From: Candidatus Nanoarchaeia archaeon
GTDB lineage: Archaea; Nanobdellota; Nanobdellia; SCGC-AAA011-G17; DATDVL01
NCBI GenBank assembly: GCA_035290025.1
Contig: DATDVL010000017.1
Location: forward strand, 1-51,310
DNA length: 51,310 bases
Direction of reading: 5' to 3'
The position numbers and the translations under genes are program-made. Under the pieces are notes generated by a model. That model was not told the DNA's origin and did no database searches. It was given only the letters and a program-made list of their open reading frames with translations. Positions 2,955 to 16,427 of the stretch are shown here, piece after piece. Numbering within the stretch: the first letter of the stretch is position 1; each line of letters begins with the position of its first letter.

Positions 2955-2975
2955 GGCTAGAAATCTTTTGGTAGT

Positions 2976-3443
2976 ATGCGTCAAATCTCCAGTCTGCACG
3001 TTTCTAGAAATATTGTTTTTCCTTTTTTTAGGAATATCCCTCCTTTTGTTGCGTGGATTGCTAAGGATTCTTCACGTAATGGTGGTCGTAATGGCCATTA
3101 TAAGGTTCTTGCTGATTATGCAAGTGCAGGTGTTTCTGCTGTTGATCAGACGTTTAGTACGTGTTATGTGTATGGTACTGTAGCTGATGATAATGCTTTT
3201 GCTATGCGTGCTGCCTTGCGTGTTGATGGCGTTCGTATTGATCATGGTGATACTGAAGGTATTCGTAGTGTTTTGAGTGCTGGTTTGACAGCGCTTATTC
3301 ATGAGTTTGATCGTTTTCCGCAAATGGTTGTGAGAAAGGATGAGTTGTCGTTAGTTGTGGAGAATCGTTTGAGTCAGATTGCTGGTCGTCCCCGTGATGC
3401 GCGAGTAGTAGACAAGCGGGTGTATTGGCGTTCTTTGTCCTAG
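2976..3443 (+). CDS. hypothetical protein (155 aa)
   Basis: ATG at correct TATA spacing. No strong competing ORF. No family recognised. Confidence 0.5.
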   Translation: MRQISSLHVSRNIVFPFFRNIPPFVAWIAKDSSRNGGRNGHYKVLADYASAGVSAVDQTFSTCYVYGTVADDNAFAMRAALRVDGVRIDHGDTEGIRSVLSAGLTALIHEFDRFPQMVVRKDELSLVVENRLSQIAGRPRDARVVDKRVYWRSLS

Positions 3444-3446
3444 AGC

Positions 3447-3462
3447 GTAAAGCTTTTAAATC
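3447..3462 (+). promoter_or_regulatory. BRE/TATA element (gtaaag cttttaaatc) of the 5S rRNA gene
   Basis: A purine-rich BRE-like hexamer is followed by a TATA box centred about 27 nt upstream of the predicted 5S 5' end at 3484. Confidence 0.5.
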
Positions 3463-3483
3463 GTCTTTTTCTTGGTTTTCTTT

Positions 3484-3599
3484 GGAACGGTCATAGCTGC
3501 CTGGTCCTACTGGATCTCGTTTCGATCTCCAAAGTCAAGCAGGCATACGTTCTTCGTTGTACTGTCCTCTGTGACGGGAAGCGGAGATAGCTGTTCCAC
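3484..3599 (+). rRNA. 5S: 5S ribosomal RNA (not linked to 16S/23S in this window)
   Basis: The termini pair (GGAACGG with CTGTTCC). Conserved blocks are present: GGTCATAGC, CTCGTTTCGATCTCCAAAGTCAAGC (compare CUCAUUUCGAACCCGGAAGUUAAGC), GTTGTACTG and GGGAAGC. It is followed by T9. Confidence 0.85.
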
Positions 3600-3600
3600 C

Positions 3601-3652
3601 TTTTTTTTTATTAAAAATTAATAACCCCTCAAGGTTAAAAATGTTTGAGGGT
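3601..3652. terminator. oligo-T terminator of 5S plus a 7-bp hairpin between convergent 5S and the Lrp gene
   Basis: T9 at 3601-3609. ccctcaa (3626-3632) pairs with ttgaggg (3645-3651). Confidence 0.4.
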
Positions 3653-4099
3653 TTGTTCATCATCGGTGAGGAACGCTTCTTCTTTGATGTTTTCTATGAT
3701 GTAGAACACTTTTTTGTCGGTTATCACCACGTTGTGTTCTAGTTCTTCTAGGAAGTGTTCTACTGCGGGTAAGTCTTTCAGTATGGCTTCAATGATGTAT
3801 TGGTAGCCATTGTTGATGCGGAAGGCGTTGTTTATTGATGGGTGTTTGCTGAAGTAGTCTTTGGCGTTTTCTCGGTGTTCTGCTGATATTTTGAGTAATG
3901 CTTGTATGCGTGCTTGGTAGCCGAGTTGTTCGTAGTTGATCAGCGTCGTGTTTTTTCGTATCAGATTGTTCAGGTTGTTTTGTATTCTGTCGAAAATAGT
4001 TGATACGGGTATGCCTGTTTTTCTGCTTATTTTGGTGAGTGCTTGTCTGCTGTTGCTGCGTAAGTGGTGCAGGATGAGGAGGTCTTTGTTAGTAGTCAT
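3635..4099 (-). CDS. Lrp/AsnC family transcriptional regulator
   Basis: An N-terminal HTH (LLILHHLRSNSRQALTKISRKTGIPVSTIFDRI) is followed by a C-terminal RAM/AsnC_trans_reg-like domain. Confidence 0.85.
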   Translation of the reverse strand: MTTNKDLLILHHLRSNSRQALTKISRKTGIPVSTIFDRIQNNLNNLIRKNTTLINYEQLGYQARIQALLKISAEHRENAKDYFSKHPSINNAFRINNGYQYIIEAILKDLPAVEHFLEELEHNVVITDKKVFYIIENIKEEAFLTDDEQTLKHF

Positions 4100-4358
4100 G
4101 GTTTCCTTCTCCGTTGTGTAGTAAGCGGTAGCCTACGATTCCTGTTGCGAGTGTTGCTGCTATGCCTGCGATGGTTATGCCGTAGCCGAAGGTTTTTGCC
4201 GTGCTTATGGCGAGGTTGCTAATGCTATCTGTTTCTGTGTAATGCATGGCTGTTAGTCGTTCTAGCGTTCTTCCTGCGCCTATGGCTACTAGTCCTACTT
4301 GTCCTAGAAATGCTCCTGCTGCTGTTGCAGTCAGTACTGTTTTGAGTGTGGTGTTCAT
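4089..4358 (-). CDS. small Gly/Ala-rich membrane protein (89 aa, 2 TM)
   Basis: Strong SD (ggaggtga) upstream of the ATG at 4358. Two hydrophobic segments. Overlaps the Lrp gene start by 11 nt, consistent with an operon. Confidence 0.55.
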   Translation of the reverse strand: MNTTLKTVLTATAAGAFLGQVGLVAIGAGRTLERLTAMHYTETDSISNLAISTAKTFGYGITIAGIAATLATGIVGYRLLHNGEGNHDY

Positions 4359-4426
4359 GCCAACTCACCTCCTTTGTTGTTACTAGGAATATTTCCGGGA
4401 AGATATTAGTATTTTTTCACTATATT

Positions 4427-4453
4427 ATTATAATGCATTAGAATATTATAATG
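4427..4453. repeat. two copies of attataatg (4427-4435, 4445-4453) flanking the perfect 10-bp palindrome taatgcatta (4431-4440)
   Basis: Read directly in the divergent intergenic region upstream of the membrane-protein/Lrp operon. Confidence 0.6.
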
Positions 4454-4467
4454 TCTAGTGTAGAAAG

Positions 4468-4479
4468 GTTTTTAATAAA
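4468..4479 (+). promoter_or_regulatory. TATA-like box for the 4500 gene
   Basis: gtttttaataaa is centred about 26 nt upstream of the ATG at 4500. Confidence 0.4.
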
Positions 4480-4499
4480 AACATCACTGTTTTACAAAC

Positions 4500-4943
4500 A
4501 TGATATATAATATAACTCATGAAAATTATGGCATGTTGTGTTCTACTGCTGCTGTTGAGTTAGACTTGTTTCGTCGTGAATTCTTGCCTCCTCGTGAGCG
4601 CACAGATAATGATTTACCCATGGATATTGTCTGCGCTTTTTCTCATGTACGTGAGTTGCATCGTCGTTTGGTTGCTCGTCCTTTGGTTACTGTTGATGAT
4701 TTCTTGGCTGTTCCTTTGTATCGTGCGTTCTGGGAGATAGTACGTTATGGCCCTCAGTATAGTAATACTCAGTCTATTGAGCAGTTGGGTTTGCAGACGC
4801 AATTATTTACAAATGATCTTGGTGCTGTAGTTGATGATGAGGTGACGCATCCTCGTGTGGAAGGAATGCGTGATGTACTTATAGACTTGTCTCGTCATCT
4901 TGATGTGTATGATAATGTTTTGTGCCGTGGCTTGGTAGCATGA
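4500..4943 (+). CDS. hypothetical protein (147 aa)
   Basis: ATG at TATA spacing. No family recognised. Confidence 0.45.
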   Translation: MIYNITHENYGMLCSTAAVELDLFRREFLPPRERTDNDLPMDIVCAFSHVRELHRRLVARPLVTVDDFLAVPLYRAFWEIVRYGPQYSNTQSIEQLGLQTQLFTNDLGAVVDDEVTHPRVEGMRDVLIDLSRHLDVYDNVLCRGLVA

Positions 4944-5239
4944 ATTCTTTTGCTGATAAGGTTTACGAGCTATGTAAGAACGTTCCTAGGGGTAAAGTAT
5001 CGACCTATAAGGAGATTGCTCGTGCCCTTAAGTGTAAGGGTTTTCAGGCTGTTGGTCAGGCGTTAAATAAAAACCCGTATGCTCCTGTTGTTCCTTGTCA
5101 TAGAATTGTAAATAGTCGTGGCGAACTTCATGGTTTTGCTTTTGGTTTAAAAAAGAAGAAGGAGTTGTTAGAGTCTGAGGGTGTTGTGGTTGTTAATAAT
5201 AAAGTCGATCTAGAAAAATTTGGTTTTTATTTTCCTTGA
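4940..5239 (+). CDS. ogt: methylated-DNA--protein-cysteine methyltransferase (active-site domain only)
   Basis: The PCHRIV active-site motif and GKVSTYKEIA HTH are present. I take the ATG at 4940 (MNSFADKVY) rather than the GTG at 4922. Confidence 0.8.
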   Translation: MNSFADKVYELCKNVPRGKVSTYKEIARALKCKGFQAVGQALNKNPYAPVVPCHRIVNSRGELHGFAFGLKKKKELLESEGVVVVNNKVDLEKFGFYFP

Positions 5240-6885
5240 GTGATTAGGTGATAGAGCATGTCTAGGTTGAGTTCTAGTGCTGCTGTGGGCATGGTAATGT
5301 TAAAATTGTGTAGTATTTCTGGGTGGAGTTCTCCGATGATGCCGAACATTTTTCCTTGGTGGTTGAGTGTTGCTTTTCTTCCTTTGATGAATACTTCGGA
5401 TGGTTGTTGTGGTTCTTCGTAGGTTATGGTCATGCCTAATTGTTGTGTTAGGTAATCGCTGAGTTGTTTTATTTTGGTGTAGTCTGCTCCTTCTCCGCAG
5501 AGTGTTATGGCTAAGTGTTCTGTTTCTTGTATGCCTGTTTCTGTGTTTCCAGGGTTGAAGATGGTTCCCATTTCGTAGAGGTTTTGGGGGTAGGTGTGGT
5601 GGGTGTTTTTTCCGAGGACTTCCAGTAAGTTTGCTAGGATGTTGTTTCTTAGGACGTTGTAGTCTTCGCTTTTGGTGTCTTCTAGGGGTATAGGTTGCTG
5701 GTTGCTGTTGATTTTGGTTGTTTGTGTTGCTTGGTTGCTGAGGTGGTAGGTGCTTGTTTCAAGGAGTTCTAGTCCTATGAGAAGTTCTGTTATTTTTTCT
5801 TTGAAGATGGTTTGTGGTGCTTCTTGTGCTGTTGTCGCAATGTTGGGTATGATAGTAGGGAAGTTTTCATAACCGTAGGCAATGGCGATGTCTTCAATGA
5901 TGTCTTGTTCGTGGATAATATCTGTTCTATAAGCAGGTACGTGTGCTTTGTGGTTGTTGTAGCCGTAGCCCATTTTTTCTAGTAGTTTTTTCATGTCTGT
6001 TTCTTTGAGGTGTAATCCTAAGAGTTTGTTGACACTAGTGATATTGATGTTCATGGTTGTTGGTGTGAGTTGTGGTGTGGTGAATGTTTTTCCAGGATAG
6101 TTCATGGTTACGTTGTAGAGTGTTCCTCCCATGTCTGCTAGTGTAGTGGTTAAGATGTTGAGTGCTTGTTGTACATTGTTCATGTCTGTTCCTGTGCATT
6201 CTATGAAAACGTCTTTTGTTGTGGTTGTTATTTTTCCTGTGTCTTCTGAGTTGGTGTAGGGGAGCATGGAGAGGACATTGTTTTTTGTATCAATGTAGAA
6301 TGGGTAGAGTTTCCAGTCCTTGGCGATGTGGCAGTATTGTTTTCCTGTTTTGTGTTGTTGTTCTACTTGGTCTGCTCGTATTGGTTTGTTCATGCCTAAG
6401 GGTTGGAAGGTAATAGTTTTCGGGTCTTTGGCGATGTAGCATATGGGGAAGTGTATATGTTCTAAGGGGTAGAGTCCGTAGCATGATTTTTTTCTGTTTC
6501 TTCCGTGTGTTAAGGCTAGTTTTTCTTGAAGTTGCATGATGTCTCGTATGCGTTCGTCCGTGAAGTGTATTCCTTTGACGACTGCGCAGACGCTGTAGGG
6601 TCGCATGGTAACGTTTTTGTCGACGATGACCTGGTAATTGCTTTTTTTTATTGTATAATTGCTGAGTCCTTTTTTTGTTCCAAGGAATGTTTTGAGCGCT
6701 CGTGCGAATCCTTGTTCGCTTAAGAGGTCTGGTCTGTTAGGGAATACTTCTACTTCTATTTCATTTTTAGTAATGCTTTCGACGTCGGTTCCGAGCATGG
6801 CCATGCGGTCTGCTAGTTGCTCGTCGCTAAGTTTTTTCCCTATATTTTTGAGGAGTGCTTGTTTGTTGAAGGTTATTTTTGGCAT
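5227..6885 (-). CDS. pheT: phenylalanine--tRNA ligase beta subunit (archaeal type)
   Basis: 552 aa with the archaeal B3/4-B5-catalytic-like architecture. It sits in an operon with pheS. Confidence 0.9.
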   Translation of the reverse strand: MPKITFNKQALLKNIGKKLSDEQLADRMAMLGTDVESITKNEIEVEVFPNRPDLLSEQGFARALKTFLGTKKGLSNYTIKKSNYQVIVDKNVTMRPYSVCAVVKGIHFTDERIRDIMQLQEKLALTHGRNRKKSCYGLYPLEHIHFPICYIAKDPKTITFQPLGMNKPIRADQVEQQHKTGKQYCHIAKDWKLYPFYIDTKNNVLSMLPYTNSEDTGKITTTTKDVFIECTGTDMNNVQQALNILTTTLADMGGTLYNVTMNYPGKTFTTPQLTPTTMNINITSVNKLLGLHLKETDMKKLLEKMGYGYNNHKAHVPAYRTDIIHEQDIIEDIAIAYGYENFPTIIPNIATTAQEAPQTIFKEKITELLIGLELLETSTYHLSNQATQTTKINSNQQPIPLEDTKSEDYNVLRNNILANLLEVLGKNTHHTYPQNLYEMGTIFNPGNTETGIQETEHLAITLCGEGADYTKIKQLSDYLTQQLGMTITYEEPQQPSEVFIKGRKATLNHQGKMFGIIGELHPEILHNFNITMPTAALELNLDMLYHLITQGK

Positions 6886-6888
6886 GGT

Positions 6889-7317
6889 TTAGAGGCTCTT
6901 CTTCATGAGTACAATTTCTTCTGGTTTATAGTTTCTTTTTTTGTAAATTTGGAATGCTAATGATTGTGGGTGGCTTGCTAGTCCTATAGCTTTTGCTTTC
7001 TTTTTTTTGAAATAGTTCTCTGTGAAGTTAAGTAATTGTCTTCCGTATCCTTGTCCTTGTGATAATTTCTCAATCACTAGTTCTTCTATGAATCCTTCTT
7101 TGCCATGGTCCCAAGTGCGTAGGTTAAGTATGAGAAATCCTTTGACGGTGTTGTTAATAGCAAGTACAAATGTTGTGCAGTTTTTGAAATCTTTTGTTAA
7201 GTGTTCATGTACTGTTTTTTCTGACCAATGTTCATTGTAAGGTTGTTTGGCGTATTCTGTACAGTAAATAGCTGTTATTTTCTTTAGGTCTTTTTTAGTA
7301 GCTTTTCTTATGTTCAT
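6889..7317 (-). CDS. GNAT family N-acetyltransferase
   Basis: The acetyl-CoA motif QGQGYGRQLL is present. 142 aa. Its start overlaps the pheS stop by 4 nt (ATGA). Confidence 0.8.
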   Translation of the reverse strand: MNIRKATKKDLKKITAIYCTEYAKQPYNEHWSEKTVHEHLTKDFKNCTTFVLAINNTVKGFLILNLRTWDHGKEGFIEELVIEKLSQGQGYGRQLLNFTENYFKKKKAKAIGLASHPQSLAFQIYKKRNYKPEEIVLMKKSL

Positions 7318-8825
7318 AGTATCCTCGTCTTCATGGTTCGTAATTGTTCTAGATCATTGCCGTACATGTCTCGTAAGTCTTTGATACCATAGTTCTCTAC
7401 GCTTATTCTGTCAACGCCTAGTCCCCAGGCGAGTACGGGTACGAATTTTCCGAGGAGTGGTTCTACGACTTCTGGTCTGAAGATGCCTGCTCCTCCGAAT
7501 TCTACCCATGTTTTCCTTGTGGGGTGCCAGATGTCTACTTCTACTGATGGTTCTGTGTAGGGGAATGGTCCTGGTCGGAATCGTACTTTGTCATGTCCCA
7601 TGGCGGTGAAGAATGTTTTCAAATAGCCGAGTAGGTGTTGTAGGTTTGCATGTTCATCGATGACAATGCCTTCTGTTTGGTAGAATTCAAATAAGTGTTT
7701 CCAGTCAAGTGTTTCGTTTCTGAATACTTTTCCTACGCTGAAGTATTTGCAGGGTAGTTTTATATTTTTGTCTTTGATGTTTCTGAGTGTTTGTGCAGAC
7801 AAGCAAGTAGTATGTGTTCGTAGCACGTTTCTTTGTGCTTCTTTCGGGTTCCAGTGTTCTCCCCACCCTTTGCTTCCGGTTGTTCCACCGTTTTTATGTA
7901 CTGCTGCTATGTCTTTCCAAAAACTGGGTAGTTTTCCTTGTGCTGGTTGTTTGATATAATAAGTGTCTTGTAGTTCTCGTGCGGGATGGTCTTGTGGCGT
8001 GAAGAGTGCGTCGAAGTTCCAGAAGCTTGTTTGTACTTTTGTTCCTGTCATTTCTTGGAATCCTAGGTTTTTCCAGATGTTTCTGATGTAGTGTAAAGTG
8101 TCGTTAGTGAAGTGTCTTTTTCCTCCCGTGATGGTTGGTACGGGTGCTTTGATGTCGTAGCTTCTGAAGTTTTTGTTTTTCCAGTTTTGTTGTTGGAGGA
8201 GTTGTGGTGTTACTGTTTCTAGGAGTTCAGTGTTGAGTTTGATGGTGGTGAGTTTTCTCCCTAGGGGTGTGAGCTGTATGGTAATAATGGTTTGTTCTTC
8301 TTCTTTGATGAGTTGTTTTCTTTGTTTGAGTTCTTTGAGGAGTTGGGTGTTAAGATTATTTGCGGGTGTTGGTAATTGTTCTAGTAATTGTTGTTCGGGT
8401 GTTTTCTTGGTGAGTAATTCTTCTCCTTTTTTGGTGAGGTCGAGTTTTCCGTTCGTTATGGTTATTGCTTGTTGTTTTTTGAGTGTTCCGAGTGCTATGG
8501 TGAATTCTTCGGGTGTGAGTTTGCTGTTTTCTTTGACGTCGATGATGCTTCGTGGTTTTTTTTCTAGTTCTTTGAGTAATTGTTGTTCTGGCAATCCTTC
8601 CTGTAAGTATTTTTTTCCGTTGTCTCCGAGGGTGATGATAATAGTTGTTATTTTGTTTCTGGTGAGTACGCCTTTGTTTTCTAGCCATTGTAGTGCTCGT
8701 GTTACTTCTACGGGTTGCATGTTGCTTTTCGTAGCAAGTGTTTCTTGGGTGCTATGGTCTTGTAAGTGGGGTAAGATTTTTCTTTCTAGGGGGTGTAATT
8801 GATTAGCCACCTCTTGGATATCCAT
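7314..8825 (-). CDS. pheS: phenylalanine--tRNA ligase alpha subunit (archaeal type)
   Basis: 503 aa. N-terminal winged-helix repeats are followed by class-II motifs (FRPGPFPYTEPSVEVD, GAGIFRPEV). TGA stop. Confidence 0.92.
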   Translation of the reverse strand: MDIQEVANQLHPLERKILPHLQDHSTQETLATKSNMQPVEVTRALQWLENKGVLTRNKITTIIITLGDNGKKYLQEGLPEQQLLKELEKKPRSIIDVKENSKLTPEEFTIALGTLKKQQAITITNGKLDLTKKGEELLTKKTPEQQLLEQLPTPANNLNTQLLKELKQRKQLIKEEEQTIITIQLTPLGRKLTTIKLNTELLETVTPQLLQQQNWKNKNFRSYDIKAPVPTITGGKRHFTNDTLHYIRNIWKNLGFQEMTGTKVQTSFWNFDALFTPQDHPARELQDTYYIKQPAQGKLPSFWKDIAAVHKNGGTTGSKGWGEHWNPKEAQRNVLRTHTTCLSAQTLRNIKDKNIKLPCKYFSVGKVFRNETLDWKHLFEFYQTEGIVIDEHANLQHLLGYLKTFFTAMGHDKVRFRPGPFPYTEPSVEVDIWHPTRKTWVEFGGAGIFRPEVVEPLLGKFVPVLAWGLGVDRISVENYGIKDLRDMYGNDLEQLRTMKTRIL

Positions 8826-8847
8826 AAGGAATGGAATACTAGGTGAT

Positions 8848-8858
8848 GTTTATAAATT
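8848..8858 (-). promoter_or_regulatory. TATA box for pheS
   Basis: The minus strand reads aatttataaac, centred about 27 nt upstream of the ATG at 8825. Confidence 0.45.
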
Positions 8859-8874
8859 CTGCTGTCACATATTT

Positions 8875-9363
8875 CTAGTCTGTTGTGGCTGTTAGGGTAA
8901 CAGTGTGTTTTTCTGCTATTGCATGGAGTTTTCTTCTTCGTAATTGTTCTGATCCTATCATGACGAGTAGTCCTAGTCCCATGATACCCATGCCTTGGAG
9001 TCTCTTTTCAATAGTTTCTTGGTCGTAGGCTATGCAGGTGCTATTTGTGGCATAAGTTTGCGTTTCCGTTTTTGCTTCTTTTATGAGTTCGGAAAGAGGT
9101 AGTTCTTTTTGGTCTGCTCTGGTGATAATAGCATAATTTGTAGTGAATCCTGTTTGTTCTAACTGGGTAAGTGCGGTAAGTCGTTGTTGTGCTTGTGTTC
9201 TTTGTTGTACATCTGTGGGTGCGGGTAACGGTTTTACGAGGTGGATCATTCCCATAATACTTACGGCTATGCCTCCGAGTGTTATTGCACCCCATATTCT
9301 TTTAGGTGTTGTTGTTTCTTGAAGATAGGCAGGGTAATGGTCTGAGGGTATTATTCTAGTCAC
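8875..9363 (-). CDS. TM-helical-TM hairpin membrane protein (162 aa)
   Basis: GTG start. TM segments are IWGAITLGGIAVSIMGMI and GMGIMGLGLLVMIG, with a Q/T-rich helical middle. Confidence 0.55.
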   Translation of the reverse strand: MTRIIPSDHYPAYLQETTTPKRIWGAITLGGIAVSIMGMIHLVKPLPAPTDVQQRTQAQQRLTALTQLEQTGFTTNYAIITRADQKELPLSELIKEAKTETQTYATNSTCIAYDQETIEKRLQGMGIMGLGLLVMIGSEQLRRRKLHAIAEKHTVTLTATTD

Positions 9364-9399
9364 GGTGTTGCAGATTTTTTTATATTTATAAACTTTTGT

Positions 9400-10161
9400 T
9401 TAGTGGCTGTAACATTTTCCGTCAGTTGCTAGGTAGGCTTGCATGCCGCGGAGTTCTTTATGGAGTCTGAGGGCTACTGCTTGGAAGTCTATGAGTGTAT
9501 GGATGCCGCCTCCTTTTCTAAAGATGTCTGTAACAGTTACAGGTAGGTTATGGGCGTGAACAAAAGGTTGGTGTATTCTTGTTACTAATTCTGGGTTGCT
9601 GAGGATGGCGAGTCTTTGGATTGCTATTAGGGGTGATAATGGTGTTCCTTCCCATGCATTTGCTAGTTGTAGAACTCCTGGTCGGTATTGTTCTAGTGTG
9701 ACAAGGATGTGGATGAGTCGTTCGTGGTCTAGGGTATCGATAATGACGGGTTTTGTGCCGTTGGTCCATGATCGTTCTTCTGCTTCTTTAGCGCATAGTT
9801 CTGAAAAGCCTGGTCCTAGTTCTACATAAGTTCTTTCTCGGTTAGTTCTTAGTCGTTCGCTTACGCGTTCTGAGTCTGGTGGTGTCAGGAATTGGTCGTA
9901 GGTTGCTATGCTTCTTCCTGTGATAAGGAATCCGTTTAGTTGGCTGAAGGGTTGTGGTGATGGTTTGAACATGCCTCGTATTTCAAAAAGTCCTGCCGTG
10001 CGTAGCAGGATAATATCTCCTATGGTGTCTGTGATGATGACTTGTTCTAGTGTTCTTGTTAATGTTCTTGTGAGTGCTTCTTCTAGGGTTATTTCTATGC
10101 GTTGAGCTTTTTCGCCATGTTGTGTAGAATCAATGTCGCGGTAGGCTTTGAGTGGTGTCAT
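9400..10161 (-). CDS. hypothetical soluble protein (253 aa)
   Basis: Good ATG with a 4-nt overlap onto the upstream gene. YVELGPGFSE is only weakly reminiscent of SAM-MTase motif I and is not enough for a call. Confidence 0.55.
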   Translation of the reverse strand: MTPLKAYRDIDSTQHGEKAQRIEITLEEALTRTLTRTLEQVIITDTIGDIILLRTAGLFEIRGMFKPSPQPFSQLNGFLITGRSIATYDQFLTPPDSERVSERLRTNRERTYVELGPGFSELCAKEAEERSWTNGTKPVIIDTLDHERLIHILVTLEQYRPGVLQLANAWEGTPLSPLIAIQRLAILSNPELVTRIHQPFVHAHNLPVTVTDIFRKGGGIHTLIDFQAVALRLHKELRGMQAYLATDGKCYSH

Positions 10162-10556
10162 GAGAATTTTCTTTTGTCAGGTTCGGTTTCTAATAAATCA
10201 AGAAGTGTTGTATAAGATTCTTTCGTGAAGGGGAATTCTCGTTGGCAGTCGTTGCAAATAACTGTTAAAGGTTCTCCATGATTGCGTGTCATGTGGTTTT
10301 CAATGTCGGCCTCGAAAAGTATACCGCTTTGATAGAATGTATGGTCTTTTTCAGGGTTTATTCTTCTTCTTTGATGGTCTTTTTTTTGTCGTTCTAAATT
10401 TTGTTGTGCCAATGGCGTTGGTTTTTTGTATCTACTGCCATGATAGGTTCCTTCTTTTCCTTTGCATCCGCAGTCAATGGCGAAGTGTTTTGTGGGATTG
10501 CAGATAAGTCTGTAGGTTGCTTCTAGTTTTTCTATAATAAATTCTGCTGATGGCAT
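10158..10556 (-). CDS. hypothetical Cys-containing protein (132 aa)
   Basis: Possible metal site from ICN..DCGC and ICNDC. The middle is basic. Confidence 0.5.
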   Translation of the reverse strand: MPSAEFIIEKLEATYRLICNPTKHFAIDCGCKGKEGTYHGSRYKKPTPLAQQNLERQKKDHQRRRINPEKDHTFYQSGILFEADIENHMTRNHGEPLTVICNDCQREFPFTKESYTTLLDLLETEPDKRKFS

Positions 10557-10565
10557 GTTTATGAT

Positions 10566-10949
10566 CTAAGAACTATCCTTTTTGAATTCTAAATAACCCA
10601 CCAGAGAAGTCAAAGAAAGTATAAATGTTATATAGCCTGCAATTTGAGCCTTTTCAACAGTTTTTCGTGCTTGGACGTCAGATGTTTGTGTGAGTGTTTC
10701 TAGGTTGTCTCGTGTTGTTTCTAGTGTTTGGTCTATAATGTGTAGCATGGTTTCTTGGTAGGGTTGTGGTTGTAGTGTTGGCTCTTTTGAGATGTTGAGT
10801 CTTATGCTTTCAAGTCTTTGGAGTGAACTTTTTGTTGTATCATAGGCTTTGGTAGTACTTGTTTCTTTTTTTAACAATGTTTCTCCAATAACAATAGTAG
10901 CTATGCCTAGTACTCCTGTTCCAATTATTATTTTGGTAATCCTATTCAT
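10566..10949 (-). CDS. TM-helical-TM hairpin membrane protein (127 aa)
   Basis: TM segments are KIIIGTGVLGIATIVIG and IAGYITFILSLTSLVGYL. There is an ATGA overlap with the upstream gene. Confidence 0.55.
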   Translation of the reverse strand: MNRITKIIIGTGVLGIATIVIGETLLKKETSTTKAYDTTKSSLQRLESIRLNISKEPTLQPQPYQETMLHIIDQTLETTRDNLETLTQTSDVQARKTVEKAQIAGYITFILSLTSLVGYLEFKKDSS

Positions 10950-11503
10950 GTTGTTCCTGCGGTGAGTGCTGCTCGTTCTTCCACGTACTTTTTCTGTGCT
11001 CTTCTTAAGTTGTATATGGCTATGCCTGCTCCGAGAACTATGCCTGCAAGGCTTTTAAAGAAGTACATGTGCCATGTGTTTCTAGTTCTGTTGTCATAGT
11101 CTGCAACTGCTGGAGTTGTATTGATAGTTGTTATTTCTTGTTCGTAGCGGGTAATGACCCTGTCGAATACTTGTAAACGGTCGTCAATGGTACTTGTTGT
11201 TTTTTGTGGGAAAAGTTGTTCTAGTTCTTGTTCTAAGCCTGTGGGTGTGTAAGTTATGGGTACAGGTGTTGCTGATAGTTTTGCTCTTTCTTGTCGGATA
11301 TAGTTGAGTGTTACTTGTGCGTTTCTTCGTGTGGTTAGCTGTTCAGTAATTGCTTCTGGTGGTGTATGTTTTTTGTGTTCATCTAGTATTCCCCAAAGAA
11401 CTCCACTTAATCCGATTCCTGCGAAGAGAAAGACATTTGTGGTGACTCTATTTCGGTAGCGTTGTTCTATTGTTTCTGCGGGTGTTTGTTGGTTGGTAAT
11501 CAT
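10946..11503 (-). CDS. TM-helical-TM hairpin membrane protein (185 aa)
   Basis: TM segments are NVFLFAGIGLSGVLWGIL and MYFFKSLAGIVLGAGIAIY. Confidence 0.55.
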   Translation of the reverse strand: MITNQQTPAETIEQRYRNRVTTNVFLFAGIGLSGVLWGILDEHKKHTPPEAITEQLTTRRNAQVTLNYIRQERAKLSATPVPITYTPTGLEQELEQLFPQKTTSTIDDRLQVFDRVITRYEQEITTINTTPAVADYDNRTRNTWHMYFFKSLAGIVLGAGIAIYNLRRAQKKYVEERAALTAGTT

Positions 11504-11507
11504 AGTC

Positions 11508-12164
11508 TTATTGTCTTCCGTATTTTTTTCTTAATGTTTCGTACCAGGGTGCGATTGCATCTGCTTCTTTTCCTATGGGTATATCTAAGTCGGCGTTTAG
11601 TCTTTTTCCTTTGAAGGTAGGTCTTATTCTTCCAGTTGTTAAGGTTCCTTCAAAAGTTCTGTCTGATGGTATTTTTATCCTTGTAGATGTGTATACTGCA
11701 TGGTATCCTTGCCTGATCATTTCGTCAAGAACAGGTGATCGTCCAATTGCCCAGGGTTCATTAAGATTTTTATCACAACTTCTTTTTGTGTTTAATCGTA
11801 CATGAGAAAACATGCGTTTTTCAAAGAGTCTTGCTATAGTAGCTGTCTCTTCTGAAGCTTGGTGTATGAGCATGGTTACCATGCTGCTATGGGGGTAAGG
11901 GGTATAGTGATTGTCATCGACGAAAGCATCAATAGCGAGAAAACTTCCAGGTACGATCCCTTGTCTGGTCAATGCTTGTTTTACTTCTGCTTCGTCAGTA
12001 ACTTCTGTTATGATTGCTGGTTCAAATAATATTTCTGTACTGTGAGTAGTAATGTTGTCACCTTCACCTGATTTTTCAGGGAATGTTTTGTAGGCTTCAA
12101 GAATCAGGTCATTGAGTTGGCTTGGTGCTACAGAAAATGATTGTTCAAAAGTTTTAGGTGTCAT
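11508..12164 (-). CDS. hypothetical soluble protein (218 aa)
   Basis: ATG lies 5 nt after the upstream stop. No family recognised. Confidence 0.55.
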   Translation of the reverse strand: MTPKTFEQSFSVAPSQLNDLILEAYKTFPEKSGEGDNITTHSTEILFEPAIITEVTDEAEVKQALTRQGIVPGSFLAIDAFVDDNHYTPYPHSSMVTMLIHQASEETATIARLFEKRMFSHVRLNTKRSCDKNLNEPWAIGRSPVLDEMIRQGYHAVYTSTRIKIPSDRTFEGTLTTGRIRPTFKGKRLNADLDIPIGKEADAIAPWYETLRKKYGRQ

Positions 12165-12169
12165 GGTTA

Positions 12170-12601
12170 TTAGTCATGAGTTATGTGTATTCTTGGTGGC
12201 TTATTCATTTCATTACATGCATAGGTAAAGGAACCTAATGCTGTGAGGGCCATGATGATACTTCCGAAAATAGTTGCTGATCTATGATTATCAGTTGCTT
12301 GTCGGTACTGGAGATAATCAGGGTGTTCTCGTTCGTAGGCACTTATTCTTTGTAATTCCTGGGTTGTTGTTTGTAGGTGTTGTGAGACTCCTTCAAGTTG
12401 TTGTCCTTTCATGGTCCATGGTTTTATGGTGTTAAGTTCTTCTTGTATCCTGTTAAGCTGGTAAATCTGTTCTGTATAGGTTTGTGCGAGATTGACGAGG
12501 GTTGTTCTTTCTGGTGTTGGTGCTATGATTTTTTCTAGTATAAGGTCTGCTCCAATAGAAAGTGCTAGTGCAATAGTAATGTTGCGAAGGGGTTTTGTCA
12601 T
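12170..12601 (-). CDS. TM-helical-TM hairpin membrane protein (143 aa)
   Basis: TM segments are ITIALALSIGADLIL and ATIFGSIIMALTALGSFTYA. The start lies 2 nt after the trmB-family stop. Confidence 0.55.
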   Translation of the reverse strand: MTKPLRNITIALALSIGADLILEKIIAPTPERTTLVNLAQTYTEQIYQLNRIQEELNTIKPWTMKGQQLEGVSQHLQTTTQELQRISAYEREHPDYLQYRQATDNHRSATIFGSIIMALTALGSFTYACNEMNKPPRIHITHD

Positions 12602-12603
12602 GA

Positions 12604-13419
12604 CTATTTCCCGTTTTTAGTATCTTTTAAGTTTTCCCATGCTGTGTGGAACATGTTGTTCATGGCTTGCACGAAGTACGGGCTTTTTACCCATACGCCT
12701 GTGTCGTAGTCTTCGTGGGTTGTTTTGTCGTCTGCCATCATGAAGAGCATTTCTTTGCCGTCGATTATTACAAATCGTGCGTTGATGTTTTCTAAGTGTT
12801 TTACAATGCTGGTGTCTTGGAGGAGTTGTTGTGCTTTGGTTGTTTCTTTGCTGAGGGGTGCTGCTATTTTTATTTTTACTCCTTTGCTTTTTAAGTGTTT
12901 GAATGTGTTTTTGAATCGTTCTGCTTTTCTTGCGAGTCCTTGTTCTGAAGTCATGATAAGTATTTCTTTTTGTGCGTTGTCGAGCATCGTGCTGAGTTGG
13001 CTGTAGAGTGCTGTTCTTCCTTTGATGCTTCCTGCTAGGCTTGTGGGGTCGATGTGTTCTATGCCTTGTTTGTAGAGGAGTTCTAGTTCTCCGAAGAGGT
13101 CTTCTTTGCGTACTTTTTCTAGCATGTCTGATCGTGTTTCTGCTTCTTCGTGGATGATGTTTTTCATGCGTTTGACGATTTCTTCAGGTGGTACGGCGAT
13201 GTAGCGTATGGGTTTGCCGAGTTTCATGATAATGAATCCTTTTTTTTCTAGGCTTTCGAGGACGTCGTAGCTTCTGCTTCGTGGTACGTTGCTCATGTCG
13301 GAGAGTTCTCCTGCGGCTGCTACGCCTCTGCTTAACAGTGCTGTCCAAATTTTGACTTCGTAAATATTTAGGTCGAAGGCTGCTCGTGCTTTTTTGAGAA
13401 ATGATTCGTTGACAATCAT
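12604..13419 (-). CDS. TrmB family transcriptional regulator
   Basis: N-terminal winged HTH: LNIYEVKIWTALLSRGVAAAGELSDMSNVPRSRSYDVLESLEKKGF. I take the ATG at 13419, preceded by SD aaggag, rather than the GTG at 13437. Confidence 0.8.
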   Translation of the reverse strand: MIVNESFLKKARAAFDLNIYEVKIWTALLSRGVAAAGELSDMSNVPRSRSYDVLESLEKKGFIIMKLGKPIRYIAVPPEEIVKRMKNIIHEEAETRSDMLEKVRKEDLFGELELLYKQGIEHIDPTSLAGSIKGRTALYSQLSTMLDNAQKEILIMTSEQGLARKAERFKNTFKHLKSKGVKIKIAAPLSKETTKAQQLLQDTSIVKHLENINARFVIIDGKEMLFMMADDKTTHEDYDTGVWVKSPYFVQAMNNMFHTAWENLKDTKNGK

Positions 13420-13469
13420 GGTATGCTGCTCCTTCACCCCAATCTTTGTTACTCGTGGGTAGAGAAAGG

Positions 13470-13477
13470 TATATAAA
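13470..13477. promoter_or_regulatory. near-palindromic TATA box (tatataaa) between divergent trmB-family gene and 13515 gene
   Basis: It is the only A/T box in the ~95-nt divergent region. Spacing suits transcription starts near 13445 (minus) and 13500 (plus). Confidence 0.45.
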
Positions 13478-13514
13478 GCTTTCGTTAATGTAACTACTAT
13501 TGAGGAATAAGCAA

Positions 13515-14096
13515 ATGCCTGCGTTACAACATTCTAATCAGCAACGTTCGAGAAGTGTGTTGCGTCAAGAAATTGAGGAATTAGCTTCTTTATCTCAAGC
13601 TGTAAACGATGAACTGGTTCGTTTGCGTGAAGCAGAGTCTCGTAGTGCGCATGGTCTAGTAGTCTATTTAGTAGATGGGGAAGGAAAAGTGCGAGATTTT
13701 GACCATGTGCATACTGATGCTTTGCGTGGCTATTTGCAAATAAGTAGGGGTAATAAATTTAAGGCTGCTCAAATGGCAGGTATGAATTATAACACTTTTT
13801 GCCTTCAGTTGAAGCGTTTTGGTGTAATCTATGACCCTAGTTCTGTTATGGGTAATCCTGCTCGTGAGTTGGAAGTATTACTAAAAGAGGTTGGTTCTTG
13901 GAGTGGTGGGGAATTACCTACGTTGGATGAACTACAAGATAGGTATATTGCATTTGTGTTTGCAAGAAACAATGGTCATGTGACGAATACTGCTAATGAC
14001 TTAGGTATTAGTCGCGGTGCTCTTTTTAATTGTCGTAGAAGGTTAGGCTTGGATACTACTGCATATCGTCGTCGTGGTTCTACGGTGAGTAAATAA
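13515..14096 (+). CDS. protein with two Fis-type (HTH_8-like) helix-turn-helix motifs
   Basis: GNKFKAAQMAGMNYNTFCLQLKRFGV and NNGHVTNTANDLGISRGALFNCRRRLGL both match the GN-x-x-x-AA-x-x-LGIsR-x-tL-x-x-kl-x-x-yG pattern of bacterial Fis/NtrC C-termini. ATG at 13515, with gagg 10 nt upstream. Confidence 0.5.
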   Translation: MPALQHSNQQRSRSVLRQEIEELASLSQAVNDELVRLREAESRSAHGLVVYLVDGEGKVRDFDHVHTDALRGYLQISRGNKFKAAQMAGMNYNTFCLQLKRFGVIYDPSSVMGNPARELEVLLKEVGSWSGGELPTLDELQDRYIAFVFARNNGHVTNTANDLGISRGALFNCRRRLGLDTTAYRRRGSTVSK

Positions 14097-15189
14097 ATTT
14101 ATGGAGCTGTTGTTCTGCTTTTTTTCTTCGTTTTTGGTGTTCTTGTAAGAACGTGTTTATTTTGTCAATGAGTAGTTGTTTTAATTCTCCTGATAATAGT
14201 TTTCCACTTTTGTAGTCATGGTAGGTATTTTCTAGTTTTTTGTCGTCTTCTTCCAAGAAAGTAAGCCATTGGTAGCTGATGTCTATGTCAGGATTTCCTC
14301 CATGTTTTCTGTGTTCTTCTAGGGTGTCTTTTCCTCCACTAAAAGCATATTTTTTTATTTTTTTTGCTACGTCTTCTGGTGTGTCGGTGAGGAAGATGGC
14401 TGTGTCAGGTTGTGATGAAGACATTTTGGTGTGTATTCCTTTGAGTCCTGGCATGAATTTTATGAATGTTGCTGAAGGTGGGATGAATTTATAGTCTTTC
14501 ATGCGTTGAGCAATGTCTCTGCTTAGATTGATATGGGGTACTTGATCTGCTCCTACTGGCACGATAACAGGTTTTGGTCCTCCATTTTCTGATAGTTGTG
14601 GGTAAAGGATATCTGCTACTTGGGTAAATGCGGAAATAATTTTTCCTGGTGTGAGTTCTCCGTAAATTCCTTGTAGTTCATTGAAAGTTACTTTGTTTGC
14701 TATTATTTTGCTTAGGTTCATGTATTCTTTTGATCCTTCGCTTTGGAAGTAGAATTTAGTTTTTTTTGGCTGTAGTCCAAGTGCTATATAATTGAGGAGG
14801 TATTCATTTAGGGCTACTTCTCGTGCTTGGGCTAGGGGTATATTTCTGGTGAGATAAGATTCTATATCCGCTACGCATATATGGCAGTCTGCTCCTAATT
14901 TTTGGAAGTAAATCATGAGGTCAGTTATTGCTTTATGTCCGAAATGAAATTTTCCTGAAGGCATTAATCCAGTAAGCATGGCAAATGGTTTTTTTCCATC
15001 TATTGCTTGTAATACTGTTTCGAAAGATTTATGACCGAATGCAATGTTTCTTGTAAAATAATAGTTTTTAGGTATTTTTTTAAGTAACGTTTTAGTAGAT
15101 TCTACACCGAGGTCGCGCATTAATTTTTCATAGTTTTTTACTTCACTTGCTTTCCAAGGGTCGAGAAAGTTTGTTTCCTCTTTTGCCAT
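14080..15189 (-). CDS. trpS: tryptophan--tRNA ligase (archaeal/eukaryotic type)
   Basis: The N-terminus reads DPWKASEVKNYEKLMRDLGVE. The HIGH-type motif is PSGKFHFGH and the KMSKS variant is KMSSS. 369 aa. TrpRS is preferred over TyrRS on length and N-terminal motif. Confidence 0.8.
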   Translation of the reverse strand: MAKEETNFLDPWKASEVKNYEKLMRDLGVESTKTLLKKIPKNYYFTRNIAFGHKSFETVLQAIDGKKPFAMLTGLMPSGKFHFGHKAITDLMIYFQKLGADCHICVADIESYLTRNIPLAQAREVALNEYLLNYIALGLQPKKTKFYFQSEGSKEYMNLSKIIANKVTFNELQGIYGELTPGKIISAFTQVADILYPQLSENGGPKPVIVPVGADQVPHINLSRDIAQRMKDYKFIPPSATFIKFMPGLKGIHTKMSSSQPDTAIFLTDTPEDVAKKIKKYAFSGGKDTLEEHRKHGGNPDIDISYQWLTFLEEDDKKLENTYHDYKSGKLLSGELKQLLIDKINTFLQEHQKRRKKAEQQLHKFIYSP

Positions 15190-15211
15190 GATGGTTATTT
15201 GTAGTCAGTTG

Positions 15212-15222
15212 CTATTTAAATC
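15212..15222 (-). promoter_or_regulatory. TATA box for trpS
   Basis: The minus strand reads gatttaaatag, centred about 27 nt upstream of the ATG at 15189. Confidence 0.45.
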
Positions 15223-15265
15223 TTGCTTTAACATTGTTGACAGTAAGTCTTTTTTTGTTATCCAT

Positions 15266-15279
15266 AAAGTTTTTATAGG
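15266..15279 (+). promoter_or_regulatory. BRE/TATA (aaag tttttatagg) for the 15299 gene
   Basis: Centred about 26 nt upstream of the ATG at 15299. Confidence 0.45.
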
Positions 15280-15298
15280 CATATTTTTTTAGTGGATT

Positions 15299-15607
15299 AT
15301 GAGTTTTCATACACAGCATGATTTTGAGGAATCTTTAAAGTATCATGGTATTTATGTGACTCACGAAACTGGTCCTGCTGCACGTTATGCGGATCCTGTT
15401 GGTTATGTTGGGGTAAAGAACAGTGTTGTGCCTTCTGATAGGGCGGGTAAGTCTTTAGCTAAGTTTCTTGAGCTTGATGGTTCTTTACCTGATGCTGCGG
15501 AACGTCAATTAGATCGAGCTTTGGTTGCTGCTTTGCGTAGACAACTTGCGGGTCGTGCTGCGCATCGTGATGGTCGTGTTGCTACTCGTCTTTTTCATCG
15601 TCGATAA
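15299..15607 (+). CDS. hypothetical protein (102 aa)
   Basis: ATG at TATA spacing. No family recognised. Confidence 0.45.
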   Translation: MSFHTQHDFEESLKYHGIYVTHETGPAARYADPVGYVGVKNSVVPSDRAGKSLAKFLELDGSLPDAAERQLDRALVAALRRQLAGRAAHRDGRVATRLFHRR

Positions 15608-15638
15608 GGTTAAATAGGATTATTCTTGAGTATTGTTT

Positions 15639-16427
15639 ATGAAGCATTCCTTGTCTGTTTCCTTGTTGTTGGTGGGTTTATTTGTACTTGCGCAGGTTGT
15701 TGGTTTGTTCGTTGTTCAGGGGTATGCTAGTCAGTCGTTGCCCTTGGGTTTGCAGCCTCCTGCGTTGGATCCTGATACATCGTTTATTTCTTTGTTAGGC
15801 ACGGTTATTGTTCTTTCCTTGGTGGTTTGGTTGTTGATGCGTTTTCGTTTTGGTTTTTTGTGGAAGTTTTGGTTTTTCATTTCTTTAACGTTGGTGTTAA
15901 CCGTTGCGTTGGCTGCTTTTCTTCCGGAATTGTGGGCGTTGGGTGTTGCTGTTGTCTTGGCATTGTTGAAGTTGTATCGTCATTCTGTTTTTTGGCATAA
16001 TCTTCCGGAGATGTTGTTGTATGGTGGTTTGGCTGCTGTTTTTGCTCCCGTGTTTTCTTTGTTGTCCTTAGTATTCTTGTTGATATTGATTGCTGTGTAT
16101 GATGCTGTTGCTGTGTGGAAGACGAAGCATATGGTTTCTTTGGCGAAGATGCAGTTGAAGGAGCGTTTGTTTGCAGGTTTGTTGATTCCGTATGGTAAGA
16201 AGAAGTCTGCGTTGTTGGGTGGTGGTGATATTGCTTTTCCGTTGTTGGCGAATGCTGTTTTGTTGCGTGAGTTTGGTGGTGTTGCTGCAGTGATAGGTGT
16301 TGTTTTTGCTGCGGGTGCTTTGTGGTTATTGTTGTGGTTGTCGGAGAAGAATAAGTTTTATCCTGCCATGGTCTTTTTGTCGGTGGGTTCGTTGTTGGCT
16401 ATTGGTCTTAGTTGGTTGTTCGTATAG
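15639..16427 (+). CDS. presenilin/signal-peptide-peptidase homologue (A22 intramembrane aspartyl protease)
   Basis: Polytopic membrane protein with the YD motif (LIAVYDAVAVW), the GxGD motif (LLGGGDIAFP) and a PAL-like motif (FYPAM). ATG at 15639, 25 nt downstream of ggttaaatagg. Confidence 0.75.
   Translation: MKHSLSVSLLLVGLFVLAQVVGLFVVQGYASQSLPLGLQPPALDPDTSFISLLGTVIVLSLVVWLLMRFRFGFLWKFWFFISLTLVLTVALAAFLPELWALGVAVVLALLKLYRHSVFWHNLPEMLLYGGLAAVFAPVFSLLSLVFLLILIAVYDAVAVWKTKHMVSLAKMQLKERLFAGLLIPYGKKKSALLGGGDIAFPLLANAVLLREFGGVAAVIGVVFAAGALWLLLWLSEKNKFYPAMVFLSVGSLLAIGLSWLFV

Follow-up and report, generated by a model that had tools for sequence, protein, structure and literature searches.

Probable lineage-specific gene cargo, including a new two-member hairpin protein family, in a recurrent variable slot between TrmB and pheS of a woesearchaeal genome

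The genes that lie between a TrmB-family transcriptional regulator and pheS, the gene for the alpha subunit of phenylalanyl-tRNA synthetase (PheRS), in Candidatus Nanoarchaeia archaeon are lineage-specific cargo in a recurrent variable slot, and two of them form a genuine new family of membrane hairpin proteins. They lie on contig DATDVL010000017.1 (NCBI GenBank assembly GCA_035290025.1), of which positions 1 to 51,310 of the forward strand, a stretch of 51,310 nucleotides (nt) referred to below as the window, were analysed; the source genome (G000) amounts to 0.89 Mb in 73 contigs and is 88% complete. Seven open reading frames (ORFs) follow TrmB on the same strand, four encoding proteins (H1 to H4) in which a helical segment is held between two transmembrane (TM) segments, and three, interleaved with them, encoding soluble proteins (S1 to S3). 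An original prediction, made from the sequence, took the eight genes for an operon headed by its own regulator and specifying an undescribed envelope or cell-contact module, with a repeated set of hairpins and dedicated soluble partners. We hold a different reading to be probable, that the seven genes constitute accessory cargo, native and fast-evolving, lodged in a permissive slot between a core, TrmBL2-like TrmB and the co-directional pheS.

A scan of one genome per species yielded 80 TrmB loci of Woesearchaeota, among which two contexts are conserved. TrmB is followed by a co-directional pheS in 37 of the 80, and a second TrmB paralogue occurs in the order Lig, TrmB, none to two ORFs and ArgRS. 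The TrmB-pheS interval in the 37 loci spans 17-3040 bp (median 458; less than 300 bp in 17), and 17 of these 37 related genomes have nothing between the two genes; at 3778 bp the interval of the window is the longest of 38 (the 37 relatives and the window itself). Of the slot ORFs, 31 of 39 run in the direction of TrmB. The majority are unrelated from one genome to another, a few being tandem paralogues, and no slot ORF from the 37 other genomes matches any of the seven genes of the window. One of the few slot families common to more than one genome consists of related pentapeptide-repeat-like proteins (ANLxGANL...), encoded by the first cargo gene after TrmB in two loci (L043, 1473-2369; L056, 1384-2112). 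The pheS-pheT junction accepts cargo as well: the window has there a gene for a GNAT acetyltransferase, and the small ORFs that other Woesearchaeota have in this place are different ones, some of them with a TM segment.

The slot changes even between close relatives. The pheS product of the window is 80% identical to that of G001, a genome of the same genus, and 57-59% identical to those of other genomes of the family (f1). The slot of G001 holds one soluble ORF of 85 amino acids (aa); that of G002, also of the same genus, reads TrmB, H2-like, H1-like, a 90-aa hairpin and pheS, with the order of the two related genes swapped and no soluble genes; and that of G004, of the same family, has an 87-aa hairpin and then ORFs of 135, 196 and 408 aa before pheS. 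A conserved gene set or order was not found in related genomes: H1- and H2-like genes alone recur, in one sister species and in swapped order. For five of the seven genes there is neither conserved order nor hairpin similarity, the combination that the original prediction had set against itself, and H1 and H2 are the two for which this does not hold. Further afield, 24 of the 79 other Woesearchaeota TrmB loci have an unassigned ORF coupled to TrmB, 15 of these 24 lack a TM segment, and eight of the 79 loci run directly into pheS. Beyond family f1, what is coupled to the TrmB stop codon is usually a soluble ORF and in no case a hairpin. The idea that TrmB is generally followed by a TM hairpin in Woesearchaeota was tested and rejected, none of the 24 coupled unassigned ORFs being a hairpin.

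The regulator at the head of the block is itself a conserved component. Identity to its orthologues is 70-72% within the genus and 51-60% across Woesearchaeota, and TrmB is a core gene of the order, present in two copies per genome. As replaceable cargo stands behind this core gene, TrmB is not the dedicated head of the gene set, and the specific regulatory link first proposed finds no support, the cargo of its 3' flank differing between genomes. TrmB matches PF01978 (66.1 bits, cut-off 25.6; the N-terminal winged-helix domain, residues 20-85) and PF11495 (37.3 bits, cut-off 22.2), the latter over profile positions 5-134 of 233, which marks a short form. Against the NCBIfam TrmBL2 model NF041141 it scores 88.7 bits, with an equivalog cut-off of 530 and an alignment that spans positions 8-261 of 264. 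Judged by these matches, it is TrmBL2-like in form and not a TrmBL2 equivalog. In Thermococcales, TrmBL2 is a global repressor and chromatin protein. The TrmB of the window resembles it in length (~270 aa), in combining a winged-helix TrmB domain with the N-terminal part of the effector domain, and in aligning over 254 of the 264 positions of the TrmBL2 model; it differs in falling below the equivalog cut-off, and its control of the genes behind it is a presumption. The predicted block (8875-13437) began with a GTG at 13437, which would give a TrmB of 277 aa; the start is more probably the ATG at 13419 (271 aa, MIVNE...), since orthologues begin MIV... and ENA likewise calls a gene of 271 aa.

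Among the seven cargo genes, kinship could be established for H1 and H2. H1 has a counterpart in G002 (C30:3308-3766) at 37% identity (E 2e-25) and H2 one (C30:2752-3318) at 29% (E 4e-19); between the same two genomes TrmB is 70% and pheS 59% identical. The motifs of both proteins are kept across species, those of H1 being PERTxLVNLAxTY and AYEREHPD. In 240 genomes of the order H1 was found in G000 and G002 only, and its profile retrieved the G002-type protein alone from 5.8 billion proteins; for H2 the latter search returned the self-match only, and a metagenome scan with its profile found one locus, from a strain 96.7% identical to G002. Compared as profiles built from two sequences each, the H1 and H2 families match with 91-94% probability and a score of 44.7 over the last 49 columns, where 60 block-shuffled decoys averaged 13.7 and reached at most 24. 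The matching region comprises xAYE(R/K/Q) in a juxtamembrane helix, followed by P(D/A)(V/Y)..(Y/F) and TM2. By this profile evidence H1 and H2 are paralogues produced by duplication, both of which survive in a sister species, and tandem duplication thus contributes to the cargo. Their global profile alignment is collinear, with the motif after TM1 in register at low confidence. That motif had been proposed for three hairpins; it can be retained, at that low confidence, for H1 and H2, and lacks statistical support in H3.

The remaining hairpins could not be joined to this pair. Neither H3 (no credible homologue) nor H4 (no homologue) has a relative in the 240 genomes of the order, and no similarity was detectable between them and H1 or H2, or between the two: against the H1/H2 profile both scored 12.5-16.7, equal to reversed sequences and control proteins, being compared as single sequences without orthologue profiles. 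The 90-aa hairpin of G002 and the 87-aa hairpin of G004 fared no better than reversed or control sequences against the same profile. Pairwise BLAST among the eight proteins gave no matches, and single-sequence hhalign detected orthologous pairs only. The idea of four hairpins as one repeated set is therefore supported for H1 and H2, true paralogues, and not supported for H3 and H4, which show no detectable similarity by profile comparison. A 149-aa hairpin on another contig of G000 (C23), H1-like by eye (HPxxxxY before TM2), was likewise set aside, as its profile score was at noise level. It belongs to a second island of ORFans (C23, ~2958-8983), most of whose genes are joined by 4-nt overlaps: an AbrB/SpoVT-like regulator of 302 aa is divergent from the 149-aa hairpin, a membrane protein of 163 aa and seven soluble ORFans, among them a paralogous pair of 213 and 220 aa, and a TM-anchored, kinase-like gene of 564 aa lies upstream.

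Variation within G002 could be seen in a strain pair (L021, G002 C30, and L040), 96.7% identical over 1586 nt with 52 differences. Of these, 23 fall in a 53-nt patch (2771-2823) that covers codons 7-24 of the H2-like gene, in the cytoplasmic N-tail, and make up 23 of the 30 differences in that gene; a second cluster (3764-3789) removes the stop codon of the H1-like gene and yields a protein of 168 aa (P0004). The 3' end of TrmB shows three synonymous and no nonsynonymous differences, and the ratio of nonsynonymous to synonymous polymorphism (pN/pS) in the H1- and H2-like genes is about 0.9, on small counts. An origin of the hypervariable patch by something like a diversity-generating retroelement was considered and rejected, its substitutions not being adenine-specific.

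The layout foreseen for the four hairpins, a TM segment, a helical segment and a second TM segment, was confirmed. Kyte-Doolittle hydropathy scans reveal clear N- and C-terminal hydrophobic segments in H1, H2 and H3, and in H4 a clear TM1 with a weaker TM2 (GMGIMGLGLLVMIGSEQL); the loops between them are 77-105 residues long and consist to 36-44% of T, Q, E and S. Lysine and arginine number 5-15 in the tails and 2-5 on the loop side close to the membrane (H1, H2, H4 and the G002 orthologues), an excess that predicts a topology with both termini inside (N-in/C-in) and the loop outside the cell. An envelope location is hence plausible from charge distribution, which fits an outward helical loop; the other half of the proposed placement, a conserved module with partners and a dedicated regulator, found no support. 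In its AF2 model H2 is all-helical (pLDDT 70), with helices at residues 8-45, 50-78, 91-97, 106-128 and 131-181; TM1 and TM2 extend into helices of the ectodomain and are linked by a low-confidence loop and shorter helices. Foldseek found nothing at E <= 0.001 for this model in PDB and BFVD, its best E-value being 0.06, with TM-scores of <=0.37 to generic coiled coils only. Taken together with the model, the most likely role of the hairpins would be that of doubly anchored, rapidly diversifying helical surface proteins. The 4HB/TarH-type periplasmic four-helix-bundle modules of chemoreceptors and sensor kinases are likewise flanked by two TM helices. The analogy is one of architecture only: TM1, an all-helical extracytoplasmic domain of ~80-150 residues and TM2, with the N-in/C-in topology predicted for the hairpins. 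Unlike those modules, the hairpins have tails of 7-25 residues and no cytoplasmic output domain, and show no sequence or fold match to them in Pfam or Foldseek.

A full HMMER search with S1 of 1.84 billion representatives returned the self-match only, and no relative turned up in viral contigs; S3 has no relative in 60 related genomes, only a self-match in 5.8 billion proteins, none in a PDB sequence search or viral contigs, and an AF2 model that is unusable (pLDDT 35). By these searches S1, S3, H3 and H4 occur in this species alone. For S2 an order-level search found homologues (39% identity) in no more than two genomes, G201 and G231, which belong to different families, and they stand in unrelated contexts, one alone and one between the genes for elongation factors EF-2 and EF-1alpha; its profile, run against 401 genomes sampled across the phylum, gave two matches, G000 itself and G201, and a profile search of PDB sequences gave none. 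The cysteines C29, C31, C101 and C104 are invariant, and S2 would probably bind zinc through this CxC...CxxC pattern. Of the cysteine pattern first described (ICN..DCGC ... ICNDC), these four are conserved and the first 'ICN' cysteine is not. The role of dedicated partners assigned to S1-S3 is thus not upheld, S1 and S3 being without relatives, the homologues of S2 lying in unrelated contexts, and the slot of G002 containing no soluble genes. In G231 the EF-2 gene beside the S2 homologue (L130, 6964-9378; C39) encodes an N-terminal region that is atypical and of unusual length, with Hint- or intein-like endings ('...HNT' before the G-domain); judged from its sequence this extension may be an intein or a fusion.

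That the seven ORFs are genes is supported by their codon usage. Under a codon model trained on 217 long genes of G000 (reference score 0.20 +/- 0.10), their in-frame scores are 0.13-0.23 (S1, 0.218; S3, 0.233), and both off-frames are negative. The coding strand is poor in T (only about 19%), which by our arithmetic from composition lowers the stop frequency to about 0.054 per codon, and the chance of 218 or 253 stop-free codons, reckoned in the same way, is ~1e-6 to 1e-5; off-frame ORFs of ~110 aa are present inside pheS. The same ORFs are called independently in other assemblies, and the window recurs at 100% identity, and so without polymorphism, in five other DNA assemblies. The original prediction was right on the arrangement: eight co-directional ORFs lie where it put them, all on the minus strand, with gaps from TrmB to H4 of 2, 5, 4, -4, 9, -4 and 36 nt, and spacing, codon scores and independent gene calls agree that these are real genes tightly packed behind TrmB. 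It was also right that the soluble proteins belong to no recognised family, for TrmB alone of the eight genes matches a known one, and searches of Pfam, NCBIfam, PHROGs and PADLOC gave no match for any of the seven ORFs downstream of it.

The block and its surroundings are laid out in Table 1; pheT is the next gene after pheS and the GNAT gene on the minus strand. Genome-wide, TATA-like motifs are most frequent 26-35 nt ahead of start codons, a position that implies mostly leaderless mRNAs. Within 8700-13600 the minus strand has no more than three of them, at -58 (TrmB), -29 (H4) and -31 (pheS). As the 36-nt gap between S3 and H4 holds a consensus TATA box, H4 probably has its own promoter. 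Runs of five T occur within coding sequence only, until just after the pheT stop, and no spacer before the end of pheT contains an oligo-T terminator. Three transcription units are likely on these motifs, TrmB-H1-S1-H2-H3-S2-S3, H4 and pheS-GNAT-pheT, with read-through possible between them. Scans against Rfam and for tandem repeats, over 7000-16000 and 8000-14500, gave nothing relevant.

Table 1. Features of the TrmB-pheS region of the window, in the order of the minus strand.
Feature	Position	Strand	Remarks
TrpRS gene	14080-15189	minus	Upstream neighbour of TrmB
TATA-like box aaagcTTTATATAcc	13470-13477	minus	Upstream of TrmB; followed by GGGGTGAAGGAG, a Shine-Dalgarno-like stretch before ATG 13419
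TrmB-family regulator	12604-13419	minus	Core gene; short TrmBL2-like form; matches to PF01978 and PF11495
H1	12170-12601	minus	143 aa; TM/helical/TM hairpin; TM segments 8-26 and 110-129
S1	11508-12164	minus	218 aa; soluble ORFan; self-match only
H2	10946-11503	minus	185 aa; hairpin; paralogue of H1 by profile comparison
H3	10566-10949	minus	127 aa; hairpin; this species only; TM segments 5-24 and 102-120
S2	10158-10556	minus	132 aa; soluble; conserved CxC...CxxC; sporadic small family
S3	9400-10161	minus	253 aa; soluble ORFan; self-match only
TATA-like box aaaagTTTATAAAtat	9385-9392	minus	Probable internal promoter, 29 nt ahead of the H4 start
H4	8875-9363	minus	162 aa; hairpin; this species only; GTG start; TM1 24-43, weaker TM2 124-141
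TATA-like box agaaTTTATAAAca	8849-8856	minus	31 nt upstream of pheS
pheS (PheRS alpha)	7314-8825	minus	Conserved downstream border of the slot, by identity to relatives
GNAT acetyltransferase gene	6889-7317	minus	Between pheS and pheT; gene call

In the spacer on the other side of TrmB, towards TrpRS, the opposite strand carries a 198-aa ORF (13500-14096, plus strand) with two Fis-type HTH_8 motifs and an in-frame codon score of 0.171. The spacer measures 642 nt in the window and 152 nt in the sister species G002, and the ORF is another lineage-specific insertion. On a larger scale, all contigs of G000 of at least 8 kb show a whole-contig absolute GC skew of 0.14-0.36, with an AT skew of opposite sign. 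This strand asymmetry is unlinked to gene orientation (correlation -0.07), genes of both strands in the window sitting in G+T-rich plus-strand DNA; it is unusually strong for a prokaryote, and we offer no explanation for it.

As to origin, the block looks native. Its base composition and skews match those of its flanks; no att-like direct repeats bracket it and no repeat family is present; the Pfam list contains no integrase or transposase within ~6 kb either side of S3; 2.9 million viral contigs hold no relatives of its genes, and PHROG gave no matches. PADLOC models of anti-phage defence likewise matched none of the seven proteins. By composition the block looks as if it either is old enough to have acquired that of its host or arose in place. 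Integron cassette arrays, too, are runs of small genes, unrelated and co-directional, that lack promoters and are expressed from a single one upstream; the block differs from them in having no integrase within ~6 kb and in gaps of 2-9 nt, or overlaps, that leave no room for attC. Closer are the integrase-free variable hotspots known as genomic islets, with which the slot of the window shares conserved core flanks, a content that changes between close relatives, and cargo that is co-directional, tightly packed and without promoters of its own or mobility genes. Unlike these, it has a defined downstream border in pheS, and its cargo is dominated by the hairpin architecture, with two members paralogous and an interval of exceptional length.

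A coherent, undescribed envelope or cell-contact module, in which the four hairpins form a membrane assembly attended by three soluble servers under dedicated TrmB control, would account for the tight translational coupling of the genes, for the rare architecture common to four of the seven, and for the keeping of the paralogues H1 and H2 beside TrmB in two species, with a hairpin behind TrmB in G004 too. We nevertheless think it improbable, given that G002 keeps its H1- and H2-like genes in the opposite order and without a soluble partner, that G001 has none of them, that S1 and S3 lack relatives while S2 homologues stand alone or between the EF-2 and EF-1alpha genes, and that TrmB is a core gene with unrelated cargo elsewhere and H4 probably has a promoter of its own. 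A more restricted link, with the hairpin directly after TrmB acting as a membrane partner that tethers or modulates it, comparable to the membrane sequestration of some bacterial regulators, would explain why a TM hairpin is what follows, coupled to the TrmB stop codon, in G000, G002 and G004. Against this, G001 has its soluble 85-aa ORF there, the 24 coupled unassigned ORFs of the 79 other loci include not one hairpin and 15 without a TM segment, eight of these loci lead straight into pheS, and H1, the H2-like protein of G002 and the 87-aa protein of G004 are not mutually orthologous, so that such tethering seems hardly likely at all.

Most of the seven could also be young proto-genes of little or no function, arisen or decayed in a spacer subject to read-through and aided by a T-poor, stop-poor strand. 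Lineage-specific archaeal proteins without predicted function tend to be short, rich in TM segments and like candidates for de novo origin (PMC9258230), and S1, S3, H3 and H4 have no detected homologue. The unusable model of S3, the low T content, the off-frame ORFs of 110 aa inside pheS, and the pN/pS of the G002 strain pair, which suggests weak constraint on few differences, agree with this. It too appears improbable, if very slightly more so than a module, when set against the rarity of 218 or 253 stop-free codons, native codon usage in the annotated frame only, ATGA overlaps and spacings of 2-9 nt typical of selected operons, the conservation of the H1 and H2 motifs across species and of S2 at 39% identity, and the T-rich codons that TM segments require and a T-poor strand disfavours. 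Very unlikely, lastly, is an integrated mobile element or provirus of which the block would be a remnant: relative to the sister species G001 it is an insertion of 3.7 kb, consists of small ORFans and membrane proteins, as do many archaeal virus genomes, includes in S2 a gene of patchy distribution across families, and has the extra Fis-type HTH gene across TrmB, but there are no nearby integrases or transposases and no flanking direct repeats, composition and codon usage are indistinguishable from those of the host, neither PHROG nor the viral contigs provide matches, and the spacings leave no room for recombination sites.

Several observations count against native accessory cargo as well. 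The hairpin layout occurs in ~13 of the 1071 ORFs of G000, and four of these within the seven genes are a striking enrichment; moreover, the family f1 genomes G000, G002 and G004 repeatedly have a TM hairpin directly after TrmB, and a functional tie of hairpins to one another or to TrmB is conceivable on both counts. The two same-genus genomes compared are both incomplete (56% and 88%), and the absence of homologues for short, fast-evolving helical proteins may partly reflect detection limits. The topology comes from a positive-inside count applied by hand, ambiguous for H3 (4 versus 6), and the operon structure is predicted from motifs alone.

If the seven genes are native cargo of the slot, as we prefer, the six from H1 to S3 would ride on the TrmB promoter through their 2-9-nt gaps and ATGA overlaps, and H4 and pheS would each be transcribed from its own TATA box, to judge from sequence. 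The hairpins would sit in the membrane with their two short, basic tails on the cytoplasmic side and display a T/Q/E-rich helical hairpin or bundle of 77-105 residues on the cell surface, under the S-layer, acting as rapidly diversifying surface or contact proteins, and the soluble ORFans would be unrelated cytoplasmic passengers and not dedicated partners. A bolder version, which we regard as unlikely, makes the 3' flank of TrmB in Woesearchaeota a recurrent, integrase-free landing pad or gene nursery, where new genes without promoters would be taken up, duplicated and reordered and, from the outset, expressed by the TrmB promoter, and which in this genus would have yielded a young, diversifying, doubly anchored helical surface family (H1, H2, perhaps H3 and H4) for host contact.

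For DPANN genomes, the case cautions that tight packing behind a regulator is no proof of a dedicated system, as the regulator can be a core gene and the genes packed behind it replaceable. TrmB-pheS is a bounded locus, occupied in 20 of the 37 surveyed Woesearchaeota by mostly unrelated small genes, and can be used to follow the origin, duplication and loss of new genes in reduced symbiont genomes. H1 and H2, as candidate surface proteins, form a small and tractable pair for work on host contact in this group, and the slot itself may be of more importance than its present cargo.

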